Shown piece by piece: positions 1 through 8,447 of a stretch of 8,447 bases of DNA. Source of the stretch: a virus. Its lineage: Duplodnaviria; Heunggongvirae; Uroviricota; Caudoviricetes. Made by a program: the position numbers and the translations under genes. The notes below the pieces were generated by a model. It was not told where the DNA came from, searched no databases, and was given only the letters and a program-made list of their open reading frames with translations. The DNA is taken from IMG/VR virus record IMGVR_UViG_2734482772_000013, positions 1 to 8,447 of that record; one strand, 5' to 3'. Every line of letters begins with the position of its first letter. Positions within the stretch are counted from its first letter, which is position 1.

Positions 1-2013
1 GTCAAAACCATTTTCGCGGGCGCTGTCTTCCGCTTCCGGTTTACGTCTTACCAGCTTCCAGTTATCCGGATGCGTGCACACACGGGAGGATTCCCCGATG
101 AATGGCGACCAGATCCCGTAAATCTGTACACTCTGTTCGCCGTAATCGTTCAGCTCATCTGCGAGGTCGTAGGCTGTGCGAATCAGGTAGTCCTTGCGCG
201 GAACAAGTACGCCACCCTGTTTTTCAATGTAGGTGGCAAAACATCCGGCATCAGCGGCAGCGAGTACCGCATCCATTGCGTCATCCTTCAGCCGTTGCGG
301 GCCTTCCGGGTTGCGTGCCATCTGGCTGGCAAGGCGGCGCAGTTCACGCCACACCTGACGGGAGGGGATGCCAAAGAACTGGAACTGGCGGACCCGATGA
401 AGGCGCGCCCAGCCGATGGCGCGCTCCACGCTCTCGGCCATTGATTTTCCGGTTTCGTGGTCAACGCGTGGTTTGCCCGTTTTCGGGTCGATTCCATCCA
501 CGGCGCGGCTGTCCAGGTTTTTTCCGATGTAGGTGGCGATGTAGCTGGTTGGCGTGCCTTTGGAGCCGTCGACGTACTCCACCTTAAAGCGCGGAGTAAT
601 ATCATTGCCCAGCTCGTGGCGGTCTTCCTGAATGGCAATATCGCGGGTGATGGCCACGATGCTGTCGATTTCTTCCGGATGAGCAAAGACCATCATATGC
701 CAGTGCACGGTGCCGTCATGGTGAGGCTCCACCGTGCGGATGCCATACCAGCGCAGGCCGTCGCGGTTCAGTTTTTTGCGGACCGCCGCAAAAAACGTGT
801 TAACCAGGTAATCGCTGGAGTCGCGCATGGTGGCCCCGTTCCATTTGGGATTCGGATGACCGTTCTCTGTTGTGGCGTGGTATTTTGACGGGCAGGTGAC
901 AGTCAGAAACACCGCTTTGTCGCCACGGGCTTCGGCCAGAAGTTCCAGTCCCTTCATGGTGGCCATCATTTCTGCCTTACGGTGAACCGGGTTACTTACT
1001 CCCGCGTAATACACTGTCTCGAGATCAATCGTGAAACCGTCTTCGTTTTCCAGTTCGAAGCTCTTCAGGAAGTCGCGGGTTTTCTCGCGCTGTGCGCGAA
1101 ACTCGCTTAACGCGTCCTGGCTCAGATAGGGTGATGTTTTTCTGGAAACCAGACAGGCGGCGCGGAGTTGTTCTTCTCTCCACTCACAACGTAACAGCCA
1201 CAGTTTGCGTTTCCACCAGTCCGCACAGGTCAGGCGAAGGATTGCGCCCGGCAGCAGTTCCGTATCCGGTTCGTTCCTCCGGTCTTTATCTGTTGTCAGT
1301 GCGTCATAATGTGGAGGCATAGCGTGCAGGTGTAACGCCATGCGGGCCAGCATCTGATACGCCTTCAGCGTTACATCCATGGTCAGTTCGCCATCAGTCG
1401 CGCCAAAGCCATCGCAGAGTTTTTCGAAGGTGCTGCTGAACATCGCTGCCGTCATGGTGGCCAGCGTCTGTATCTGGTGTTTGTTGAGCTGCGGCAGGTA
1501 AAGCAAATCGTCCAGGCGTTCGCGTCCGGCAAGGGAGCGATAACCCGGTGTCAGCCAGCGTCCGTCAGTGCGATCCAGACGTTCGAATATTTTGCGCAGG
1601 GTTCCGCGTGCATAGCGTTCCGCCTGCCAGCTCTTTTTGCCTTTCCGGCGATCGGCTTCCTGTTTTTTGCGCAGGAAGGAGAGGTGGCGAATAAGCGGAT
1701 CGCGCAGATAGTACGGCAGCAGGCGGAGCGAGGCCATGGCTTCATCCACCGCGCCGCGTGCCTGTTTTCTGGCGTCTCCTGCCAGTGTGATGGTTTTGTC
1801 CTGTTTTTCCTGTGCATCCAGGCTTTTATTAATCAGGTTGCCCAGCGGCGTGGCGGAGAACGCCGCATCAGCCATTTCCTGGCGGCGCTCATTCTCTGCC
1901 CGGTAGGCATCCAGCCAGGAGGAAAGCGCGGATTCAGGAGTGGGGATCCCCGTTCCTTCACGCCCCACTGCGTGGCGCGGTTGTTGCCAGTCCCTGATGT
2001 ACTCTGCCGTCAT
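1..2013 (-). CDS. Rolling-circle replication initiator / replication endonuclease (P2 gpA-like, HUH superfamily), partial: N-terminal ~671 aa, C-terminus beyond window start
   Basis: Hand translation of the minus strand from ATG at 2013 stays open to position 1 (671 codons). It contains TVHWHMMVF (HUH metal-binding motif, codons at 720..661) and YIATYIGK (catalytic Tyr pair). Absent from the ORF track probably because there is no in-window stop. The plus-strand ORFs listed here are antisense artefacts. Confidence 0.85.
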   Translation of the reverse strand, partial: MTAEYIRDWQQPRHAVGREGTGIPTPESALSSWLDAYRAENERRQEMADAAFSATPLGNLINKSLDAQEKQDKTITLAGDARKQARGAVDEAMASLRLLPYYLRDPLIRHLSFLRKKQEADRRKGKKSWQAERYARGTLRKIFERLDRTDGRWLTPGYRSLAGRERLDDLLYLPQLNKHQIQTLATMTAAMFSSTFEKLCDGFGATDGELTMDVTLKAYQMLARMALHLHAMPPHYDALTTDKDRRNEPDTELLPGAILRLTCADWWKRKLWLLRCEWREEQLRAACLVSRKTSPYLSQDALSEFRAQREKTRDFLKSFELENEDGFTIDLETVYYAGVSNPVHRKAEMMATMKGLELLAEARGDKAVFLTVTCPSKYHATTENGHPNPKWNGATMRDSSDYLVNTFFAAVRKKLNRDGLRWYGIRTVEPHHDGTVHWHMMVFAHPEEIDSIVAITRDIAIQEDRHELGNDITPRFKVEYVDGSKGTPTSYIATYIGKNLDSRAVDGIDPKTGKPRVDHETGKSMAESVERAIGWARLHRVRQFQFFGIPSRQVWRELRRLASQMARNPEGPQRLKDDAMDAVLAAADAGCFATYIEKQGGVLVPRKDYLIRTAYDLADELNDYGEQSVQIYGIWSPFIGESSRVCTHPDNWKLVRRKPEAEDSARENGFD

Positions 2014-2019
2014 AGTGAT

Positions 2020-2385
2020 TTACTTCGTCATGCCATTCAGGGTGTCGCGGCAGACTGTAGCCAGCCGCTGAATTTCCAGCACGGTGTCTTCTGTGTCGGC
2101 ATGGCGATGTGTGATGCGGATGCTGTCGGCAATCACATCGACGATTGCAGAGGATGGGCGCTGGTAAATGCCAATAACGGACGGTGTGCCGCCTTCAATG
2201 CGGTAAAGCCTGTAATTTCCCTCGTGGCTGTCAATCATGTAGCGACCATCAATAACAATCTTTCCGTCAGCGAGCTGCGGTACAGGCAGGGATTTCAGGT
2301 ACATGTCATAACGTTCACGCACGCGAACGGCAAGATCACGCTCTGTGTTGAGCAGGTATTCAAGAAAGTCGTTGGCGAGAATCAT
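2020..2385 (-). CDS. Hypothetical early-operon protein, 121 aa
   Basis: ORF track; SD-like AAGAGGA about 10 nt upstream of ATG; stop 6 nt before the A-gene start; position equivalent to the small ORFs preceding gene A in P2/186. Confidence 0.6.
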   Translation of the reverse strand: MILANDFLEYLLNTERDLAVRVRERYDMYLKSLPVPQLADGKIVIDGRYMIDSHEGNYRLYRIEGGTPSVIGIYQRPSSAIVDVIADSIRITHRHADTEDTVLEIQRLATVCRDTLNGMTK

Positions 2386-2457
2386 TGCGGCAATCCTCTT
2401 GATACAGATGTGCGAAGGCCTCCCGCCGCAAGGTGCAGGAAAGGCCCGGAACAGGAA

Positions 2458-2688
2458 TTAATGGAGTTTGTTTTGCTGCTGGATGAGCTGCTGAAGCTCG
2501 CGCAGATCATCCGCCAGATAGCTAAATACTGCGGCGGAGTAGGCGTTTGACAGCACGTGGCTGTGCTCATGTGACATGTTGATGAACATGATACGAGCGA
2601 CGCGTGATGCGCGGTAAAGTCTGCGGTTGATTTCAGTCTGGATGTGACGACGCTCCGCGATAGCGCGGTGCTGTTTGCGGTTTGCCAT
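2458..2688 (-). CDS. Hypothetical small basic protein, 76 aa
   Basis: ORF track; good SD (AAAGAGG) about 9 nt upstream of ATG at 2688; first gene after the non-coding terminator region. Confidence 0.55.
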   Translation of the reverse strand: MANRKQHRAIAERRHIQTEINRRLYRASRVARIMFINMSHEHSHVLSNAYSAAVFSYLADDLRELQQLIQQQNKLH

Positions 2689-2866
2689 GGTGTGGCCTCT
2701 TTGGTTGTAAGTTTTGAAAACTCACCATCCAGAGGTGGAAAACTCGGGGTGGTGAGACGTACAGGGTTTCCACAACCGGCAACCAAAGAACCCGGCCCGA
2801 CCGAAGTCGGCCCCATACGCCCCACCATAATTCGTGTGCGAAAAAGACGTGGCGATACGGTACGCA

Positions 2867-2890
2867 CAAAAAAACCGCTGGCGCGGTTGT
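2867..2890 (-). terminator. Putative rho-independent terminator for minus-strand transcription
   Basis: Read on the minus strand: AACCGC-gcca-GCGGTT stem-loop running directly into a T-run (plus strand shows A-run 2868..2874 then ccgctggcgcgg). Confidence 0.45.
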
Positions 2891-3027
2891 GCGCTTTGGT
2901 TGTCAGCGGGGTGGAAATCCCGGCACCCGTTTTATGAGGTGCAGCGGAAATGTAACCTGACTGATTGCGGCATGGCAAGCGGTTTTTTTGTGAGAACGGC
3001 ATACTAAAAAAAATCCTGATACTGCTC

Positions 3028-3052
3028 CGGCCAGCGATTTTCACTGGCCGGG
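3028..3052 (-). terminator. GC-rich hairpin immediately 3' of the SPFH gene stop; possible terminator or mRNA-stabilising stem-loop
   Basis: CCGGCCAG-cgattttca-CTGGCCGG 8-bp perfect stem starting 6 nt after the stop codon at 3058. On the minus strand a T8 run follows only about 13 nt later (3006..3013 on plus), so it is not a canonical terminator geometry. Confidence 0.4.
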
Positions 3053-3057
3053 TTTAA

Positions 3058-3888
3058 TTACTTCACCGGAACAAACGGAACAGCGGTGTTGCTGGTCATG
3101 TATTGCGGCAGCGTGCCGTTCCATTTGTTGATTGCTTCCAGCTCCATAACGCCGGGATTCTGGCGCAGAGCTTCACCGCGTAAACGAATGGCGTCGGCTT
3201 CAGCCTGGGCTTTTGTGCGAATGGCATCAGCCTGTCCGGCAGCTTCTGCGCGCAACATGTTGGCTTCTGCTTCGCGTTGCTTGACTTCCTGTTCGCGTTG
3301 CAGGGTTTTCTGGTTTGCCGTGACTTTGGCGTTAATGCTGTCGATAACGGTTGGCGGATATTCCGGTTTACCGACATAAGAGAGGCTCATGACCTGAATG
3401 CCGATAGGTGTCATTTCTGACTGAATGTCTTTAAGTGCTGAATCCAGCAGTTCAGACTTGCCACCGTCGATAAACTTATCGGTGGTCATTTTGCTGGCCA
3501 GTCGGTTGAGTGCATCGGCGATCTTCTGGCGCAGGTCAGTGTCGGTAATGTCATCCACGCCTTTGCGGTAGGTCTGAAACACTGTGGTAACTTTGGATGG
3601 ATCAACCTTGTAGGCCACACCGATGTGATAGCCGATGGTTGTGCCGTCACTCATCTGAAAGCTGAACGGCTCATCGTAGGTCTTCATTTGTTTGAAGGTC
3701 GGGAAGATGTAAACCTCGGTATTCCAGCCAGTCCAGTAGCGGCCAACGCCAACCACTTCGCCAACGCCTTTGTCGTCGCCCAGCTTGTTGACTTTGATGC
3801 CCACATTACCTGGCTCAACGCGATCGCAGCCAACCAGCAGGATGGCGGCAAAAAGCGGGAGAATCTGAAAGAGTTTGAATTTCTTCAT
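3058..3888 (-). CDS. SPFH / band-7 (prohibitin-flotillin-HflK/C family) domain lipoprotein, 276 aa
   Basis: N-terminal signal peptide with lipobox (LLVGC); core with the SPFH-like pattern GNVGIKVNKLG...EVYIFPTF; Ala/Glu-rich coiled-coil C-terminus (AEANMLRAEAAGQADAIRTKAQAEADAIRLRGEALRQNP) as in HflC/prohibitin C-terminal regions. Start overlaps the upstream stop (ATGA). Confidence 0.85.
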   Translation of the reverse strand: MKKFKLFQILPLFAAILLVGCDRVEPGNVGIKVNKLGDDKGVGEVVGVGRYWTGWNTEVYIFPTFKQMKTYDEPFSFQMSDGTTIGYHIGVAYKVDPSKVTTVFQTYRKGVDDITDTDLRQKIADALNRLASKMTTDKFIDGGKSELLDSALKDIQSEMTPIGIQVMSLSYVGKPEYPPTVIDSINAKVTANQKTLQREQEVKQREAEANMLRAEAAGQADAIRTKAQAEADAIRLRGEALRQNPGVMELEAINKWNGTLPQYMTSNTAVPFVPVK

Positions 3889-4088
3889 TGTTTGATTTCC
3901 TTGATGTACTTACTGAAAAGGCGAACAACGCCTGCCGGGTACAGCATGGCAATGAAAATGCCCAGCAATACCAGGAAGGAGCTGTCTGATGAAATCATTC
4001 GGGGGAGTAGTCCTGCATACAGAATGAGAGAGACGAGGACGCATACCAGCGCCCACATGTATGCGCGAAACCAGGTCTTTTTGTTCAT
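3885..4088 (-). CDS. Small integral membrane protein, 67 aa, two predicted TM helices; partner of the SPFH lipoprotein
   Basis: Two hydrophobic stretches (WALVCVLVSLILYAGLL and FLVLLGIFIAMLYPAGVV); SD AAGGGA about 8 nt upstream; stop overlaps the SPFH start (ATGA coupling). Confidence 0.65.
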   Translation of the reverse strand: MNKKTWFRAYMWALVCVLVSLILYAGLLPRMISSDSSFLVLLGIFIAMLYPAGVVRLFSKYIKEIKQ

Positions 4089-4099
4089 GCTGCGATCCC

Positions 4100-4396
4100 T
4101 TACTGGTTAAGGAAAAAATCAAAAACGTTATTGATGCGTTGTAATAACTCGCGCTGTATTGCTTCCGGTGTTTCTGATTCACCTGGTGACTCCAGCGTCG
4201 CGCAAAAATCCTTGATTTCATGATGGAGCGTCAGGCGAATGGCAGGGGCCGTGGTTCTGGCGTGCTCCAGCTCATCCAGCAGTGCCAACACCACTGACGG
4301 TTGTAAGCTCACGCGAGATGGTAGTGATTCATGGAGGGGTATTCTTTGCACGGCAGTCGCCAGTTCGCGTAGTTCCTGGTGGTTGATGATGCTCAT
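4100..4396 (-). CDS. Hypothetical acidic protein, 98 aa
   Basis: ORF track; SD AAGGAA about 8 nt upstream; ATGA overlap with the upstream gene's stop. Confidence 0.6.
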   Translation of the reverse strand: MSIINHQELRELATAVQRIPLHESLPSRVSLQPSVVLALLDELEHARTTAPAIRLTLHHEIKDFCATLESPGESETPEAIQRELLQRINNVFDFFLNQ

Positions 4397-4638
4397 GCTC
4401 TGGCTTCCTTCAGTAACTGGTTAAACATATTGGTAAGTGGATTGCCGCACCCGAACGGCATCGGGTTTACCTGGTAAGAGAAGCGACCACCTGTTTTGCG
4501 CTCTTTTCTTATGACTGAACCGCTACGCCAGAGTCGGCGTAACTCCGCATTAATAGCTGTGGTTGGGGTATTCAGTGCTGCGGCGATTTCTCCACCGCTA
4601 CACCCCGGATTGGCGGCGATATAGTCCAGAATGGTCAT
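4393..4638 (-). CDS. Winged-helix DNA-binding protein (putative transcriptional regulator), about 81 aa; alternative start at 4644 (83 aa)
   Basis: Helix-turn-helix then wing pattern (GGEIAAALNTPTTAINAELRRL ... VIRKERKTGGRFSYQV). ATG at 4638 overlaps the upstream stop (ATGA) and has better SD spacing (AGGAG 8 nt upstream) than ATG at 4644. Confidence 0.6.
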   Translation of the reverse strand: MTILDYIAANPGCSGGEIAAALNTPTTAINAELRRLWRSGSVIRKERKTGGRFSYQVNPMPFGCGNPLTNMFNQLLKEARA

Positions 4639-4838
4639 CTGCATGACTCCTGTACCTGTCGGATAAGGTTCACCCGCACCACGTTGGTGGCGCAGAAGTA
4701 AGTGCCGTCAGTGAGGTAGATGTGGTGTGCATCCTTTTCTGAACGGTGTTTGTCGATTGTGGTAATCAGGCGTTCGTCGACTTCGTATTCACGTCCTCTG
4801 GAGGTAAAACGAACGACAGGAAAATGCTTAATTGCCAT
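4635..4838 (-). CDS. Hypothetical protein, 67 aa
   Basis: ORF track; strong SD AAGGAGG just upstream of ATG at 4838; first gene after an 86-nt AT-rich gap. Confidence 0.6.
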   Translation of the reverse strand: MAIKHFPVVRFTSRGREYEVDERLITTIDKHRSEKDAHHIYLTDGTYFCATNVVRVNLIRQVQESCR

Positions 4839-4924
4839 TACGCCTCCTTGGCGTGTGCGAATACCTCCGCGAATGCGGATTGTTTTTACATTTTCTTATT
4901 TAACCTGTGGTTTTATTTGCTCTG

Positions 4925-5038
4925 TTATTCGCCAGTGAAAAAGCGTTCAATCTTTTTTACTGAATGAATAATTCGCATAATCCCAATGGCGCAGGCCACC
5001 GAAATAATCAGAACAAACCATGAGATAAATATACTCAT
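4925..5038 (-). CDS. Small hydrophobic peptide, 37 aa (MSIFISWFVLIISVACAIGIMRIIHSVKKIERFFTGE), single predicted TM helix; absent from the ORF track
   Basis: Hand-translated minus-strand ORF; ATG at 5038..5036 overlaps the TGA of the upstream 80-aa gene (ATGA coupling); ends TAA at 4927..4925. Composition is a hydrophobic helix followed by a basic tail. Confidence 0.45.
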   Translation of the reverse strand: MSIFISWFVLIISVACAIGIMRIIHSVKKIERFFTGE

Positions 5039-5277
5039 GCGATATTCCCCAGCTTATACGGTTCAATGTGTTCCCCGCATTCTGCGGCACAGATCAGCTC
5101 GGAAAGTTCGTTAAGTGCATCCAGATCATCAGCGTAAAAAGCAACGTCATACAAACTCCGGATTGCCCTGGTCAATGAGTCACGGGCTGCACGTTCAGCA
5201 TGAGCGCCTGATGCACTTAAGCGAAAATAAAATCGTTCAAGTGCTTTGTTAATGAGAGTTTTATATTCTTTGCCCAT
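5035..5277 (-). CDS. Hypothetical protein, 80 aa
   Basis: ORF track; SD AAAGGG about 7 nt upstream; 11-nt spacing from the upstream gene. Confidence 0.6.
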   Translation of the reverse strand: MGKEYKTLINKALERFYFRLSASGAHAERAARDSLTRAIRSLYDVAFYADDLDALNELSELICAAECGEHIEPYKLGNIA

Positions 5278-5288
5278 CGCAACGCCCT

Positions 5289-5576
5289 TTAATCTGCTTT
5301 CTGAATTTCAGCTTCTGAATCCATACAAATAATTTCGATATAAGGTTCATCGCCATTAGCCTGGCGTGCCTTTTCAGCTTCACTAATGATTTCTCGTACG
5401 GTCTGGTACGGAAGTTCCACAAGCAGTCGCGTGCCGTTCAGATAAACGTAAGTGGCTTCGTTGACTCCGTTTTTACCCGCCGGAGCCACTCCATCAATAG
5501 CGGATGCGCGTAATAACAGTTCACCGCGAAAATCAATAAAACGGATAAATACACCTTGTGCATGCTCTTTGGTCAT
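5289..5576 (-). CDS. Hypothetical protein, about 95 aa (ORF track gives a 115-aa version from 5636 that would overlap the upstream gene by 50 nt)
   Basis: ATG at 5576 is preceded by AGGTG and lies 10 nt after the upstream stop at 5587; chosen over the longer ORF for operon packing. Confidence 0.55.
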   Translation of the reverse strand: MTKEHAQGVFIRFIDFRGELLLRASAIDGVAPAGKNGVNEATYVYLNGTRLLVELPYQTVREIISEAEKARQANGDEPYIEIICMDSEAEIQKAD

Positions 5577-5586
5577 AAAGCACCTG

Positions 5587-5925
5587 TTATAAATCAGCCT
5601 GTTTAATAAAACTTTGTCCGCGAAGCAGACGATCAACCGTGCGTAGTGCTTCGTATAATGTGAAATCCTGCCCGAACTGATTGTCGCCGCAGCTCAATGC
5701 AAAAATGCGGTTTCCGGTAAACGGATTGCGTGGGCATTTGTGGACCACGATTCCAGCTTTCTCAATCAACCAGGCATGCTCGCCGATTTGTTTTACTGGG
5801 TAGCCATCCGGCGTTGCGTGTGTTTCGCTCAGGCTGTAGCGAGAGCTGCTACGTGATGCGCTGGTAGCGAAACGGTTAGCGTGGCGTTCTGTTCCGGTGC
5901 GAAAATTACGGCGTTGCTTCAGCAT
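5587..5925 (-). CDS. Hypothetical protein, 112 aa
   Basis: ORF track; AGGTG SD about 10 nt upstream; starts 14 nt after the cox-like stop. Confidence 0.6.
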   Translation of the reverse strand: MLKQRRNFRTGTERHANRFATSASRSSSRYSLSETHATPDGYPVKQIGEHAWLIEKAGIVVHKCPRNPFTGNRIFALSCGDNQFGQDFTLYEALRTVDRLLRGQSFIKQADL

Positions 5926-5939
5926 AAAATGACACCTCG

Positions 5940-6218
5940 TTATTTTGTCATCTGCACGTATTTCTCTGCGCTCCTGATTGTTTTCAGGAAAAGAGCGAAG
6001 AGATTTACTGTGCGTCTTGAGTTCTTTTCACCCTGGTTGATGGGAATCGAACCTCTGTCAGCCTGTCTTTTCACTGTGTTAACAGCTTGTTTGGTACGCT
6101 TTGCGTAATCTTTCAGGCTTTCTTCAAGTATTGGTAATCCATGCTCATCGCGGTATGGGTAGAACGCCGCTAAACGCTCAATGTCTTCCTGTTCGTATGT
6201 ATTCAAGACCTCTGCCAT
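5940..6218 (-). CDS. Cox/Apl-like small DNA-binding regulator-excisionase, 92 aa (first gene of the early operon)
   Basis: Position (first gene divergent from the repressor) and size (P2 Cox is about 91 aa); putative HTH segment LKDYAKRTKQAVNTVKRQADRGSIP. Function assigned by synteny and motif, not by a measured alignment. Confidence 0.55.
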   Translation of the reverse strand: MAEVLNTYEQEDIERLAAFYPYRDEHGLPILEESLKDYAKRTKQAVNTVKRQADRGSIPINQGEKNSRRTVNLFALFLKTIRSAEKYVQMTK

Positions 6219-6309
6219 GATGTGATAACCTGTTCTATCTGTGGTTATTTGTTACCGAAAGTCGTCGGTAGACTACTTTTGAGATTAATTTAGTCGTCTG
6301 GAGACCACC
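6219..6309. promoter_or_regulatory. Divergent immunity switch region (expected early and repressor promoters plus operators)
   Basis: 91-bp gap between divergent cox-like and C-like genes; 14-bp direct repeat AGTCGTCgGtAGAC (6260..6273) and AGTCGTCtGgAGAC (6292..6305), 12/14 identical, 32 bp apart. -35/-10 elements could not be assigned confidently. Confidence 0.5.
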
Positions 6310-6621
6310 ATGTCAAGTGGGTATGAAAAAAAACTGAAAGAGATACGGAAGAGTGAAGGGTTAACTCAAGTTGAGTTTGCCGATGTTACCGGGATAAATC
6401 TCGGAACTATAAAGAATTATGAGAGTGGCAAAAGAGAGGTTGGTTTAAGCGTTGTCGATCGCGTAATTAATTCTAAAGATTTCGAAAAGTACACAATGTG
6501 GCTTATGACGGGAAAAACAAATGAGGCTGCAGGGCAGATCAGTCCGTCTCTCTCCCCTGATGGGCCAGAAAACACATCGCCTTCTCAAAAACTCCGCAAA
6601 ACTGGCACACAGCCCGGCTAA
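6310..6621 (+). CDS. Immunity repressor, XRE-family HTH (P2 C-type), 103 aa
   Basis: HTH_XRE pattern (LTQVEFADVTGINLGTIKNYESGKR); size and position immediately upstream of int on the same strand as in P2 (C about 99 aa); GGAGA SD 7 nt upstream. Confidence 0.85.
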   Translation: MSSGYEKKLKEIRKSEGLTQVEFADVTGINLGTIKNYESGKREVGLSVVDRVINSKDFEKYTMWLMTGKTNEAAGQISPSLSPDGPENTSPSQKLRKTGTQPG

Positions 6622-6670
6622 TCATGGAGCGCTGGGGGCATGGTGGTCTTGTAACGCTGGGGTTTCACGA

Positions 6671-7648
6671 ATGAGCATAAAATCAATTCCTGGAGGGTAT
6701 CTTCTTGACATGCGCCCAGAGGGGCGTAAAGGCAAACGCATTCGCAAAAAATTTAAAACGAAATCGGATGCAGTTTTATATGAGCGGTGGGTGCTGGCGC
6801 AACAGCATAACAATGAGTGGAAAGGAAACTCCATTGATCGCCGCCCGCTGTCAGTGCTTATTGACTTGTGGTGGAAATACCACGGCCAGCTAATGAAGTC
6901 AGGGCATAACACGCGCCTTAAATTGCTGCGCTTGAGTGAGGCAATGGATGACCCGTGCGTGCATAAACTTAATACAACGATGCTCACCGAGCTACGTGTG
7001 TCCAGGATAGAGCAGGGGATACAGCCCAGCACCATAAATCGAGAGATTGGGGCGTTAAGCGCGATGTTTAGTGCGCTCATCTCTTCCGGCCATTTCCTTA
7101 ACGATAACCCCATTCAAGGTCTGAAAGGAATGAAGGTTAACGAGCGCGAAATGGGATATCTGAGTAAGTCTGAATGTGTTCAGTTGCTGGATGCACTGGC
7201 TGAAAATCCCGATGAGCGGCTGGCTGTCGAAATTCTTTTGTCGACCGGGGCACGATGGGGCGAGGTAGCGGCACTGGAGCAGCGCCGCGTTCTTCATTGT
7301 CGAATCATTTTTTCAAAAACGAAGAACAGCAAAAACCGTACCGTTCCTATTTCTGAAAGCCTGTTTGAAAAGATCAAAAAACGGGGCGGGAAACTGGTGT
7401 TTCCGACGCTGGATTATCCATTGGTTCGCGATGTCATCAAAACGGTCGCACCTGATGTTCCTGACGGCCAGGCTGTTCATGCGCTGCGCCACACCTTCGC
7501 CAGTCATTTCATGATGAACGGCGGCAATATTCTGACACTCCAGAAAATTCTGGGGCACGCAAAGATTCAGACAACGATGATTTATGCCCATCTTGCGCCG
7601 GATTACTTGCAGGATGCGGTGAGATTTAATCCACTAGGAGGTGCTTAA
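6671..7648 (+). CDS. int: Tyrosine site-specific integrase (P2/186 family), 325 aa
   Basis: C-terminal catalytic motifs (TGARWGE; HALRHTFASHFMMNGG; LQKILGH; MIYAH with the catalytic Tyr). N-terminus MSIKS...GRKGKRIRKKF resembles P2-family Int as I recall it. The 50 aa upstream in the 6521 ORF are not integrase-like and overlap the repressor gene, so start is placed at 6671. Confidence 0.95.
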   Translation: MSIKSIPGGYLLDMRPEGRKGKRIRKKFKTKSDAVLYERWVLAQQHNNEWKGNSIDRRPLSVLIDLWWKYHGQLMKSGHNTRLKLLRLSEAMDDPCVHKLNTTMLTELRVSRIEQGIQPSTINREIGALSAMFSALISSGHFLNDNPIQGLKGMKVNEREMGYLSKSECVQLLDALAENPDERLAVEILLSTGARWGEVAALEQRRVLHCRIIFSKTKNSKNRTVPISESLFEKIKKRGGKLVFPTLDYPLVRDVIKTVAPDVPDGQAVHALRHTFASHFMMNGGNILTLQKILGHAKIQTTMIYAHLAPDYLQDAVRFNPLGGA

Positions 7649-7650
7649 GA

Positions 7651-8013
7651 ATGATGCATCCTTTAGATAAACTTAAAGAAATGGCAACGCTCGATAATTT
7701 TGCGCGTTTTCTCAATGAGTCGTCTGCGAATGAAAAATGTTTGTCGTGTGGCGATACGGATATGTACATGTATTTGACGAATATTGTTGAGGTGGGGCCT
7801 GAGCCGAAAACTGCTGAGGAGTGTAATTTAGGCACTCTTGTTATGCTTGATTATATTGGCCCATTTACTGGGTATCCTGGATATGAGGGACATGATCGGG
7901 AAAATATCCATAACTATGAATTCAGACTTACCTGCAACAGATGTGGGTTTGTTCATCGTTACTCGGCCCGAGCTTTTATGAGCTGGGTAGGTAAGCAGGG
8001 TGATGACAAATGA
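7651..8013 (+). CDS. Hypothetical protein with two CxxC pairs (putative zinc-ribbon), 120 aa; cargo gene coupled to int
   Basis: Strong SD (AGGAGGTG) 7 nt upstream of ATG, which lies 2 nt after the int stop; Cys pairs CLSC and CNRC about 62 residues apart; no family recognised. Confidence 0.65.
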   Translation: MMHPLDKLKEMATLDNFARFLNESSANEKCLSCGDTDMYMYLTNIVEVGPEPKTAEECNLGTLVMLDYIGPFTGYPGYEGHDRENIHNYEFRLTCNRCGFVHRYSARAFMSWVGKQGDDK

Positions 8014-8447
8014 TGCCGGACAGCACTCCTATTTTACCGTTCAGAAAAAAGAAAGAGAATGCCTATAATGTATCCAACAACCAAGTGACAGGAAGTGGTA
8101 ATGATGGAGGCGATGGCATGAATGACGACCTTGAACGGCGAGTTAGTTGCCTGGAAAGTGATGTAACTGAAATCAAAAACAACCTGATTACTCTCACCAC
8201 GAGAAGCGAATCCTTTGCCACCAAATTTGATGTACTGGAGATTCGTGAAGGGTTGCGGCTTGAGATGGCAGAATCGCGCCAATCCCTGAAGTCTGAGATG
8301 GCTGATTTGCGCCAGTCTCTGAAAGTTGAGATGGCTGAGCATCGTACTGAACTTCAGAAATCATTTGCAAATCAGACCTGGCTACTCACAGGTATTGTCC
8401 TGTCTGCGATGGCTGTGCTTGTGGCTGTTGTTACTGTTATTAAGTAA
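8010..8447 (+). CDS. Coiled-coil, C-terminally membrane-anchored protein (XhlA/DUF1640-like architecture), 145 aa; possible alternative start at 8118 (109 aa)
   Basis: ATG overlaps the upstream stop (ATGA); C-terminal hydrophobic helix WLLTGIVLSAMAVLVAVVTVIK; central tandem 11-residue repeats; the first 36 residues are low-complexity and an in-frame ATG at 8118 has a GGAGG SD 7 nt upstream. Confidence 0.7.
   Translation: MMPDSTPILPFRKKKENAYNVSNNQVTGSGNDGGDGMNDDLERRVSCLESDVTEIKNNLITLTTRSESFATKFDVLEIREGLRLEMAESRQSLKSEMADLRQSLKVEMAEHRTELQKSFANQTWLLTGIVLSAMAVLVAVVTVIK
8262..8360 (+). repeat. Three tandem 33-bp repeats inside the 8010..8447 CDS encoding hendecad repeats EMAESRQSLKS / EMADLRQSLKV / EMAEHRTELQK
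   Basis: Direct reading: repeat units start at 8262, 8295 and 8328, each beginning gagatggc. Confidence 0.8.

Follow-up and report, generated by a model that had tools for sequence, protein, structure and literature searches.

A strictly paired zinc-ribbon and tail-anchored coiled-coil gene cassette of P2-like prophages and enterobacterial siphophages, a candidate for phage exclusion

Among the described phage systems that come closest to the locus presented here, lambda RexA is a protein of 279 aa and RexB has four transmembrane (TM) helices, HK97 gp15 and P22 SieA are superinfection-exclusion morons, and sieB of P22 (sieB/esc) has an internal start that yields a second, shorter product. XhlA is a membrane protein of the lysis cassettes (xhlA-holin-endolysin) of Bacillus and Clostridium phages, and for the DUF1640 family we know of no established function in bacteria. 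Here, the last two genes of an 8,447-nucleotide stretch of viral DNA (IMG/VR record IMGVR_UViG_2734482772_000013, positions 1 to 8,447; hereafter the window, with all features on the plus strand unless stated otherwise) were analysed computationally. Gene 1 (7651–8013), identified from the list of open reading frames (ORFs) and a hidden Markov model (HMM) of the PHROG database, encodes an acidic 120-aa zinc-ribbon protein (phrog_4293), while the long form of gene 2 (8010–8447), defined by the ORF list, PHROG, and an AlphaFold2 model, is a 145-aa tail-anchored coiled-coil membrane protein (phrog_9415), the stop codon of which forms the last bases of the window. We concluded that the pair is very probably a real, mobile, and obligately paired accessory cassette, whose products act on the inner membrane from the cytoplasmic side. 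A role in phage exclusion or abortive infection is a plausible reading of its genetic context, although we hold it to be somewhat short of probable.

An HMM search of all fetched loci showed that gene 2 lies directly downstream of gene 1 in 73 of the 74 loci where gene 1 was found, and the sole unpaired locus ends at a contig edge. A later run including the newest loci detected both genes in 76. Near-identical loci are frequent among them, and the whole set amounts to 45 distinct protein triples and to about 18 subfamilies of gene 2 that are less than roughly 80% similar. The preliminary description, which was based on the letters of the window, treated the two genes as one module, and this was confirmed by their adjacency and translational coupling in all 73 informative loci and about 18 non-redundant subfamilies. 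In the window the start of gene 2 overlaps the stop of gene 1 (ATGA), and in all paired loci the first possible gene 2 start is situated between −28 and +5 nt from the gene 1 stop. Pairing was kept down to 22–31% identity for gene 1 and 17–43% for gene 2, and no solitary gene 1 or gene 2 occurred among the fetched loci. E. coli genomes matching the gene 2 core only proved to have another type of gene 1, in some cases unannotated, upstream of it. The genes were therefore not seen as unconnected single genes, which would have spoken against a module; instead, the pair is kept on two unrelated phage backbones.

Nearly all members of the family that were found lie in phage or prophage DNA, with a relative in only one of 72,556 plasmid records. 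All source names encountered are genera of Enterobacterales (Escherichia, Shigella, Salmonella, Klebsiella, Lelliottia, Serratia, Providencia, Pectobacterium, Yersinia, and Buttiauxella). The profile of gene 1 relatives collected 187 cluster representatives at E ≤ 1e-3, all of them small stand-alone proteins of 49–180 aa, while the scan of species-representative genomes yielded four loci only. A tblastn search of the phage collection with the window gene 2 gave no match, probably due to the low-complexity filter, and a siphophage homologue used as the query found Salmonella phage SPN3UB. A literature search that used accessions, the PHROG id, the family names DUF1640 and XhlA, and keywords for the domains, the scope of which did not include Brenes & Laub 2025, revealed no description of the pair and no earlier account of the obligate pairing of phrog_4293 and phrog_9415.

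Genome matches and Pfam placed the window at the integrase end of a P2-like prophage of E. coli. The tyrosine integrase gene, int (6671–7648; Pfam Int_N 1.5e-28, Phage_integrase 5.5e-20), is followed straight by the pair at three chromosomal integration sites (btuC, yhbY/ftsJ, and an aldose-epimerase gene), and also in a Klebsiella element. Approximately 300 complete E. coli genomes have this int lineage, and the content of the position behind int differs among them. About 220 E. coli genomes match int (approximately 97% identity) only to query position 1,333–1,342, which corresponds to 7632–7641 of the window. This part of the int 3′-end is the left boundary of an exchangeable slot, which spans from here to the conserved sequence ATGATCCACAAAGTGACC... 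The slot was occupied by the window-type pair in 86 genomes, by an L-type pair (a 166-aa zinc-ribbon protein and a protein called DUF1640 in RefSeq) in 23, by a K-type pair in 14–16, and by an unrelated 131-aa gene, as in E2348/69, in 158 genomes. Some allele of the cassette is thus present in about 2% of the complete E. coli genomes (86 + 23 + about 14–16 of 5426). All of these contents sit after the 97%-identical int and between identical flanks. Downstream of gene 2, the complete genomes have about 15 nt and then, as far as btuC, about 190 bp common to every cargo allele. The beginning of this shared stretch is presumably the arm of the attachment site (att), and the remainder is host sequence with a terminator hairpin.

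Two marks of a moron were found at this slot, namely allelic replacement with conserved flanks between near-identical prophages, and a base composition that differs from that of the neighbouring phage genes. The GC content is 42% in gene 1 and 45% in gene 2, compared with 49% in int and 51% in the window, and at third codon positions it is 40% and 45% in genes 1 and 2 versus 53% in int. In a 2026 survey of thousands of P2-like prophages, 3% of the P2 defence systems were reported to lie in the int-att region (PMC13586616). The 131-aa gene (4170–4565 of the E2348/69 locus, L073, where the slot corresponds to 7649–8447 of the window) had no Pfam or PADLOC match and is a second uncharacterised cargo allele of the int-att slot. 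The K-type gene 1 (about 135 aa, with the four cysteines kept) is intact and unannotated in RefSeq in E. coli strain 2D (L077, 2036–2513), and in 13 further genomes a K-type gene 1 lying between int and an annotated gene 2 is likewise unannotated.

The pair is on the same strand as, and directly downstream of, int and the gene of a P2 C-type helix-turn-helix (HTH) repressor (6310–6621; Pfam HTH_3 6e-10), which is labelled as helix-turn-helix in the matching genomes. According to our reading of the gene layout, repressor C would open a lysogenic operon that is read leftwards and runs on through int into the pair. The gap between the int stop and the gene 1 start is only 2 nt, and the Shine-Dalgarno sequence of gene 1 (AGGAGG, 7636–7641), as read from the sequence, is embedded in the last int codons, 9 nt before the ATG. 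No convincing terminator was found, and a promoter consensus scan detected no promoter ahead of gene 1 in the P2-like context. At locus L007 a hairpin is present 3′ of gene 2. The consensus scans gave no more sites than shuffled sequences did. If the pair forms the end of the operon of repressor and integrase, lysogens should express it. The minus strand carries, according to the matching genomes, part of the replication endonuclease gene and the early-operon genes, one of them for a DNA-binding protein in the Cox position.

Gene 1 has cysteines at positions 30, 33, 58, 95, and 98, and the two CxxC pairs claimed in the preliminary description were borne out at 30–33 and 95–98, that is, 62 residues apart. 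The two knuckles, C30–C33 (7738–7749) and C95–C98 (7933–7944), are family-invariant, since their four cysteines, together with W112, were invariant in 31 diverse relatives. The AlphaFold2 model (pLDDT confidence score of 83) consists of two N-terminal helices, zinc-ribbon β-strands, and a C-terminal helix, and no fold relative was found when the sequence profile was compared with the PDB. Neither window protein gave anything above threshold in Pfam or NCBIfam. The lack of a recognisable family noted earlier for gene 1 holds for these two databases and PADLOC, whereas a PHROG family does exist: gene 1 matches phrog_4293 at 4.4e-30, the PHROG label of which is “unknown function.” The ratio of nonsynonymous to synonymous substitution rates (dN/dS), determined among close E. 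coli alleles, was 0.33 for gene 1 and 0.08 for int, thus gene 1 is under purifying selection and is a real gene. Its product was suggested to be a possible DNA-binding component; however, the isoelectric point (pI) of 5.1 (family median 5.4) argues otherwise, and judging from this acidity a nucleic-acid-binding role is unlikely.

The low-complexity N-terminus, the coiled coil, and the single C-terminal TM helix expected for gene 2 were all recognised. In the AlphaFold2 model residues 1–34 are disordered (pLDDT <50) and are followed by helices at 36–66 and 72–144. The sole strongly hydrophobic segment is 126–144 (Kyte-Doolittle 2.65), after which one Lys remains; this C-terminal TM helix (8385–8441) is preceded by the conserved Trp, W124. 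The N-terminal extension (8010–8117) contains in most subfamilies a short motif of the F/Y-P-basic-aromatic type (PFRK in the window) and then a Gly-rich tract. A 33-bp tandem repeat in 2.4 copies (8260–8338) encodes the 11-residue units EMAESRQSLKS, EMADLRQSLKV, and EMAEHRTELQK, the copy number of which differs among homologues. Among close E. coli alleles dN/dS was 0.21 for the whole gene, 0.04 for the core, and 0.50 for the N-terminal 36 codons, and the purifying selection acting on the whole gene indicates that gene 2 is also a real gene. It matches phrog_9415 at 3.6e-38, again labelled “unknown function.” The 102-aa ORF on the minus strand (8034–8342) was considered and rejected as an artefact, given the dN/dS of 0.04 of the plus-strand core. 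In two siphophage contigs of IMG/VR, L055 (6209–6562) and L056 (6209–6514), the gene 2 homologue has no C-terminal TM helix, while the close relative L057 has one; the shorter ends may be due to a frameshift, truncation, or assembly error.

Gene 2 probably has a second start, which would give a short form of 109 aa. An internal Shine-Dalgarno sequence (GGAGG, 8106–8110) precedes the ATG codon of M37 (8118–8120), and in every subfamily the Gly-rich tract is followed by a Met (in one case a Val, encoded by GTG) just before an LExRVxxLE motif. GGAGG was found at −16 to −4 of this conserved residue in 10 of the 14 automatically scored, mutually related subfamilies, or in 12 of 18 when the four read by eye are included. 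The E. coli usage of Gly codons would lead to 2.25 of 14, and none of 2,000 simulations reached the observed number (P<0.0005). Many database entries are annotated from M37, for example, P0021, a protein of 109 aa present on at least 1,000 contigs. The long form is probably made as well, because the 36 upstream codons keep the aromatic-Pro-basic-aromatic motif in most subfamilies. These sequence features suggest that gene 2 gives rise to two isoforms, a long one coupled to gene 1 and a short one from the conserved internal start. A sigma-70-like site, TTCAGA-18-TATAAT (10/12 consensus positions, 8040–8069), lies upstream of the internal start, within the 5′ part of gene 2, so that a transcript from it would bear the internal Shine-Dalgarno and start only. 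This site, which is a consensus match only, is also present in strain 165 (L001), and such sites are no commoner than in shuffled sequences.

The two parts of gene 2 differ in their relation to gene 1. The identity of gene 1 follows that of the gene 2 N-extension (Spearman 0.55) far more closely than it follows the identity of the core (0.20). The loci L074 and L077, for instance, have cores of 99% identity, while their gene 1 products and N-extensions are 30% and 34% identical, respectively, and several other locus pairs display the opposite pattern. These identities indicate that gene 1 plus the tether, on the one hand, and the coiled coil plus the anchor, on the other, recombine separately at the Gly tract. 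That gene 1 and the N-extension are inherited together agrees with a docking peptide specific to its partner.

The second backbone is represented by siphophages of Klebsiella, Serratia, and Salmonella, where the pair is located between a DUF6246 gene and the genes of the tail chaperone and tape measure. The DUF6246 gene comes after the major tail protein gene, and the same stretch also contains KilA-N, HNH, and small opposite-strand genes. PADLOC found nothing in ten neighbouring moron genes except one weak homing-endonuclease match. In Salmonella phage SPN3UB the pair corresponds to gp24/gp25 and lies just downstream of the Arc/Ant immI-like region, and the same order, ORF6N and then the pair, was observed in a Serratia prophage remnant.

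Taken together, the cargo slots, the position in a putative lysogenic operon, the fast-changing partner combined with a conserved membrane core, and the modular shuffling are the reasons for reading the pair as a defence system. According to the mechanism that we envisage, the gene 1 product would be a small, acidic cytoplasmic protein binding zinc via its four invariant cysteines, and gene 2 would be held in the inner membrane by its single C-terminal helix, with the coiled coil and the flexible N-terminal tether exposed to the cytoplasm. Translation coupled to gene 1 would produce the long form, and the short form would be devoid of the tether. The zinc-ribbon protein would dock on the tether of the long form, and this docking would keep, or set, the activity of the membrane-anchored coiled coil. 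Upon infection by another phage the complex would act at the inner membrane, where either genome entry would be blocked (superinfection exclusion) or the XhlA-like anchor would oligomerise and the membrane would collapse (abortive infection). In this complete form, that is, a two-component membrane immunity composed of a two-isoform XhlA-like effector and a fast-evolving zinc-ribbon controller docking on the long-isoform tether, with the modules shuffled at the Gly-codon junction, the scheme is tentative and we consider it rather doubtful.

Several points weigh against the defence reading or parts of it. At E ≤ 1, PADLOC-DB v2.0.0 contained no family for either window protein, and the divergent homologues produced only coiled-coil noise (ZorA, LmuB, 2e-5 or worse). 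No known defence genes adjoin the pair, and the pair was absent, by accession and by peptide, from the DefensePredictor supplements searched as text; neither was it described in the literature covered by our search. The internal GGAGG could partly be a by-product of the Gly codons, and the gene 2 subfamilies counted for it are not phylogenetically independent. Similarly, the linkage between gene 1 and the N-extension could result from physical adjacency and recombination at the Gly-codon tract. Finally, in siphophages the pair is co-oriented with the late tail genes and could be a lytic-cycle function there.

In its fuller version, this last explanation makes gene 2 an XhlA-like lysis or membrane-remodelling accessory of the phage's own lytic cycle and gene 1 its regulator, and the pair would adjust the triggering of holins, the timing of lysis, or the release of vesicles. 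We regard it as unlikely. Besides the co-orientation with tail genes, it is favoured by the dual-start design, which is known from holin/antiholin pairs, and by the profile matches of the siphophage-type gene 2 homologues to XhlA (PF10779), which had scores of 26–28.6 bits (E 1.6e-6 to 1e-5; the best were 28.6, 26.4, and 26.0 bits) and covered positions 2–61, that is, nearly the whole of the 67-position profile. All these scores are below the gathering threshold of 34.7 bits, and the window gene 2, which showed weak coiled-coil matches only in Pfam, had no XhlA match at E ≤ 1. Its profile likewise detected only coiled-coil noise in the PDB. For DUF1640/CCDC90-like (PF07798; threshold 33.5 bits) the best homologue, L074, reached 26.5 bits and the window protein 10.8 bits. 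Alignment by hhalign with a true XhlA, gp32 of the Clostridium phage phiMMP02, gave 34% probability over 24 residues comprising the Trp-TM junction only. This XhlA adjoins a holin and an amidase, whereas no holin or endolysin is annotated near the pair within the stretches examined. Moreover, most near-identical P2-like prophages lack the cassette, consequently it is not needed for lysis.

The pair might also be a lysogenic-conversion factor altering host physiology, affecting envelope or stress tolerance, or ribosome or membrane tethering, the latter having been proposed for the tail-anchored E. coli proteins ElaB/YqjD/YgaM. The lysogenic operon position, the accessory cargo status, and the tail-anchored coiled-coil architecture agree with such a role, which we nonetheless find quite unlikely: no match to Pfam DUF883 (ElaB family) was obtained at E ≤ 1, nearly all finds of the family are in phage or prophage DNA, and the rapid swapping of gene 1 types suits a conflict system better.

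Very unlikely, in our estimation, is a role in counter-defence or host takeover, with expression early in infection and directed, for example, against a membrane-associated defence of the host or of a prophage. Such a function would accord with the location of the pair in SPN3UB and the Serratia remnant, where early-switch genes of the Arc/Ant (immI-like) type immediately precede it, and with the small size and acidity of gene 1, which are shared by many anti-defence proteins. The P2-like pair, however, sits in the repressor-int operon, which in P2, with its Pc/Pe promoters, is the lysogenic and not the early lytic transcript, and no homology to known anti-defence proteins was found. An integrase accessory or directionality factor, an Ogr/Delta-type late activator, or a virion or tail assembly component, as might be imagined from the adjacency to int in P2-like phages, the location inside the siphophage tail module, and the zinc-binding motif, is extremely improbable and was rejected, since the two contexts are mutually exclusive (the siphophage copies have no int close by, and the P2-like copies no tail genes), near-identical prophages can do without the pair, gene 1 is acidic, not basic, and without a match to Ogr_Delta (PF04606), so that the homology to a late-gene activator considered earlier was not found, and a membrane anchor would be unexpected in any of these roles.

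Other features of the P2-like region were recorded as well. On the minus strand, an Rfam C4 antisense RNA (80.5 bits) lies beside isrK (64.3 bits) at 2745–2942, directly upstream of a 76-aa gene (2458–2688, minus strand) called “derepression protein” by RefSeq in a matching genome; this arrangement looks like an RNA-controlled antirepressor-type switch in the early region of the P2-like prophage. The early operon also includes a gene (3058–3888, minus strand) for a 276-aa SPFH (band-7) lipoprotein with a Cys-containing signal sequence, which overlaps the stop of a 67-aa membrane-protein gene (3885–4088, minus strand). As the SPFH gene is missing from the related P2-like prophages GF31, strain 165, and E2348/69, it is further accessory cargo, and it falls in the int-primase region, which is listed as an additional P2 hotspot (PMC13586616). 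The classical P2 hotspot, which is flanked by the portal and replication genes, contains in strain 165 (L001, 3622–5275 and 5457–6732) genes for a PIN-domain protein and a 381-aa HTH protein, then a ParM/partition pair.

The cassette also occurs in phages of Klebsiella, Salmonella, Serratia, Providencia, and other Enterobacterales, and both of its proteins are unnamed and lack known relatives in fold. If the cassette does serve phage exclusion, it would add a membrane-acting system of only about 0.8 kb, unusual in its design in that a tail anchor is combined with two isoforms and an exchangeable zinc-ribbon partner, and would back the P2-like int-att slot and the moron region of the siphophage tail module as places in which to search for immunity genes. 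If lysis tuning proves to be true instead, XhlA-type proteins would extend to Gram-negative phages. The pair is therefore a well-defined and cheaply testable candidate, and not a demonstrated new system.

Compared with the known systems, gene 2 resembles XhlA in its small size, short coiled coil, Lys/Trp-containing junction, and one C-terminal TM helix, while the extra N-terminal tether, the obligate zinc-ribbon partner, and the occurrence in Gram-negative temperate phages set it apart. The DUF1640/CCDC90-like proteins share the coiled coil and the C-terminal TM helix, and RefSeq labels some E. coli homologues in the same slot as “DUF1640 domain-containing protein.” Thus, of the XhlA/DUF1640-like architecture proposed in the preliminary description the likeness stood and family membership did not, every score being under its threshold, and from these profile comparisons gene 2 may be distantly related to such tail-anchored proteins. 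Of the analogy drawn with Rex only the layout remained. In lambda, the lysogenic transcript carries two genes behind the repressor, one for a soluble and one for a membrane product, and the order of the pair after repressor and int is compatible with this; the analogy is nevertheless loose, as RexB is a polytopic protein, unlike gene 2 with its one tail anchor. The statement that the proteins themselves do not resemble RexA/RexB proved correct, with no sequence or fold similarity and no match in PADLOC-DB. HK97 gp15, P22 SieA, and sieB/esc have no sequence relationship to the pair and are single genes without a zinc-ribbon partner, but like gene 2 they encode small inner-membrane products, and they occupy the same niches, as a moron between the tail and tape-measure genes or next to immI.

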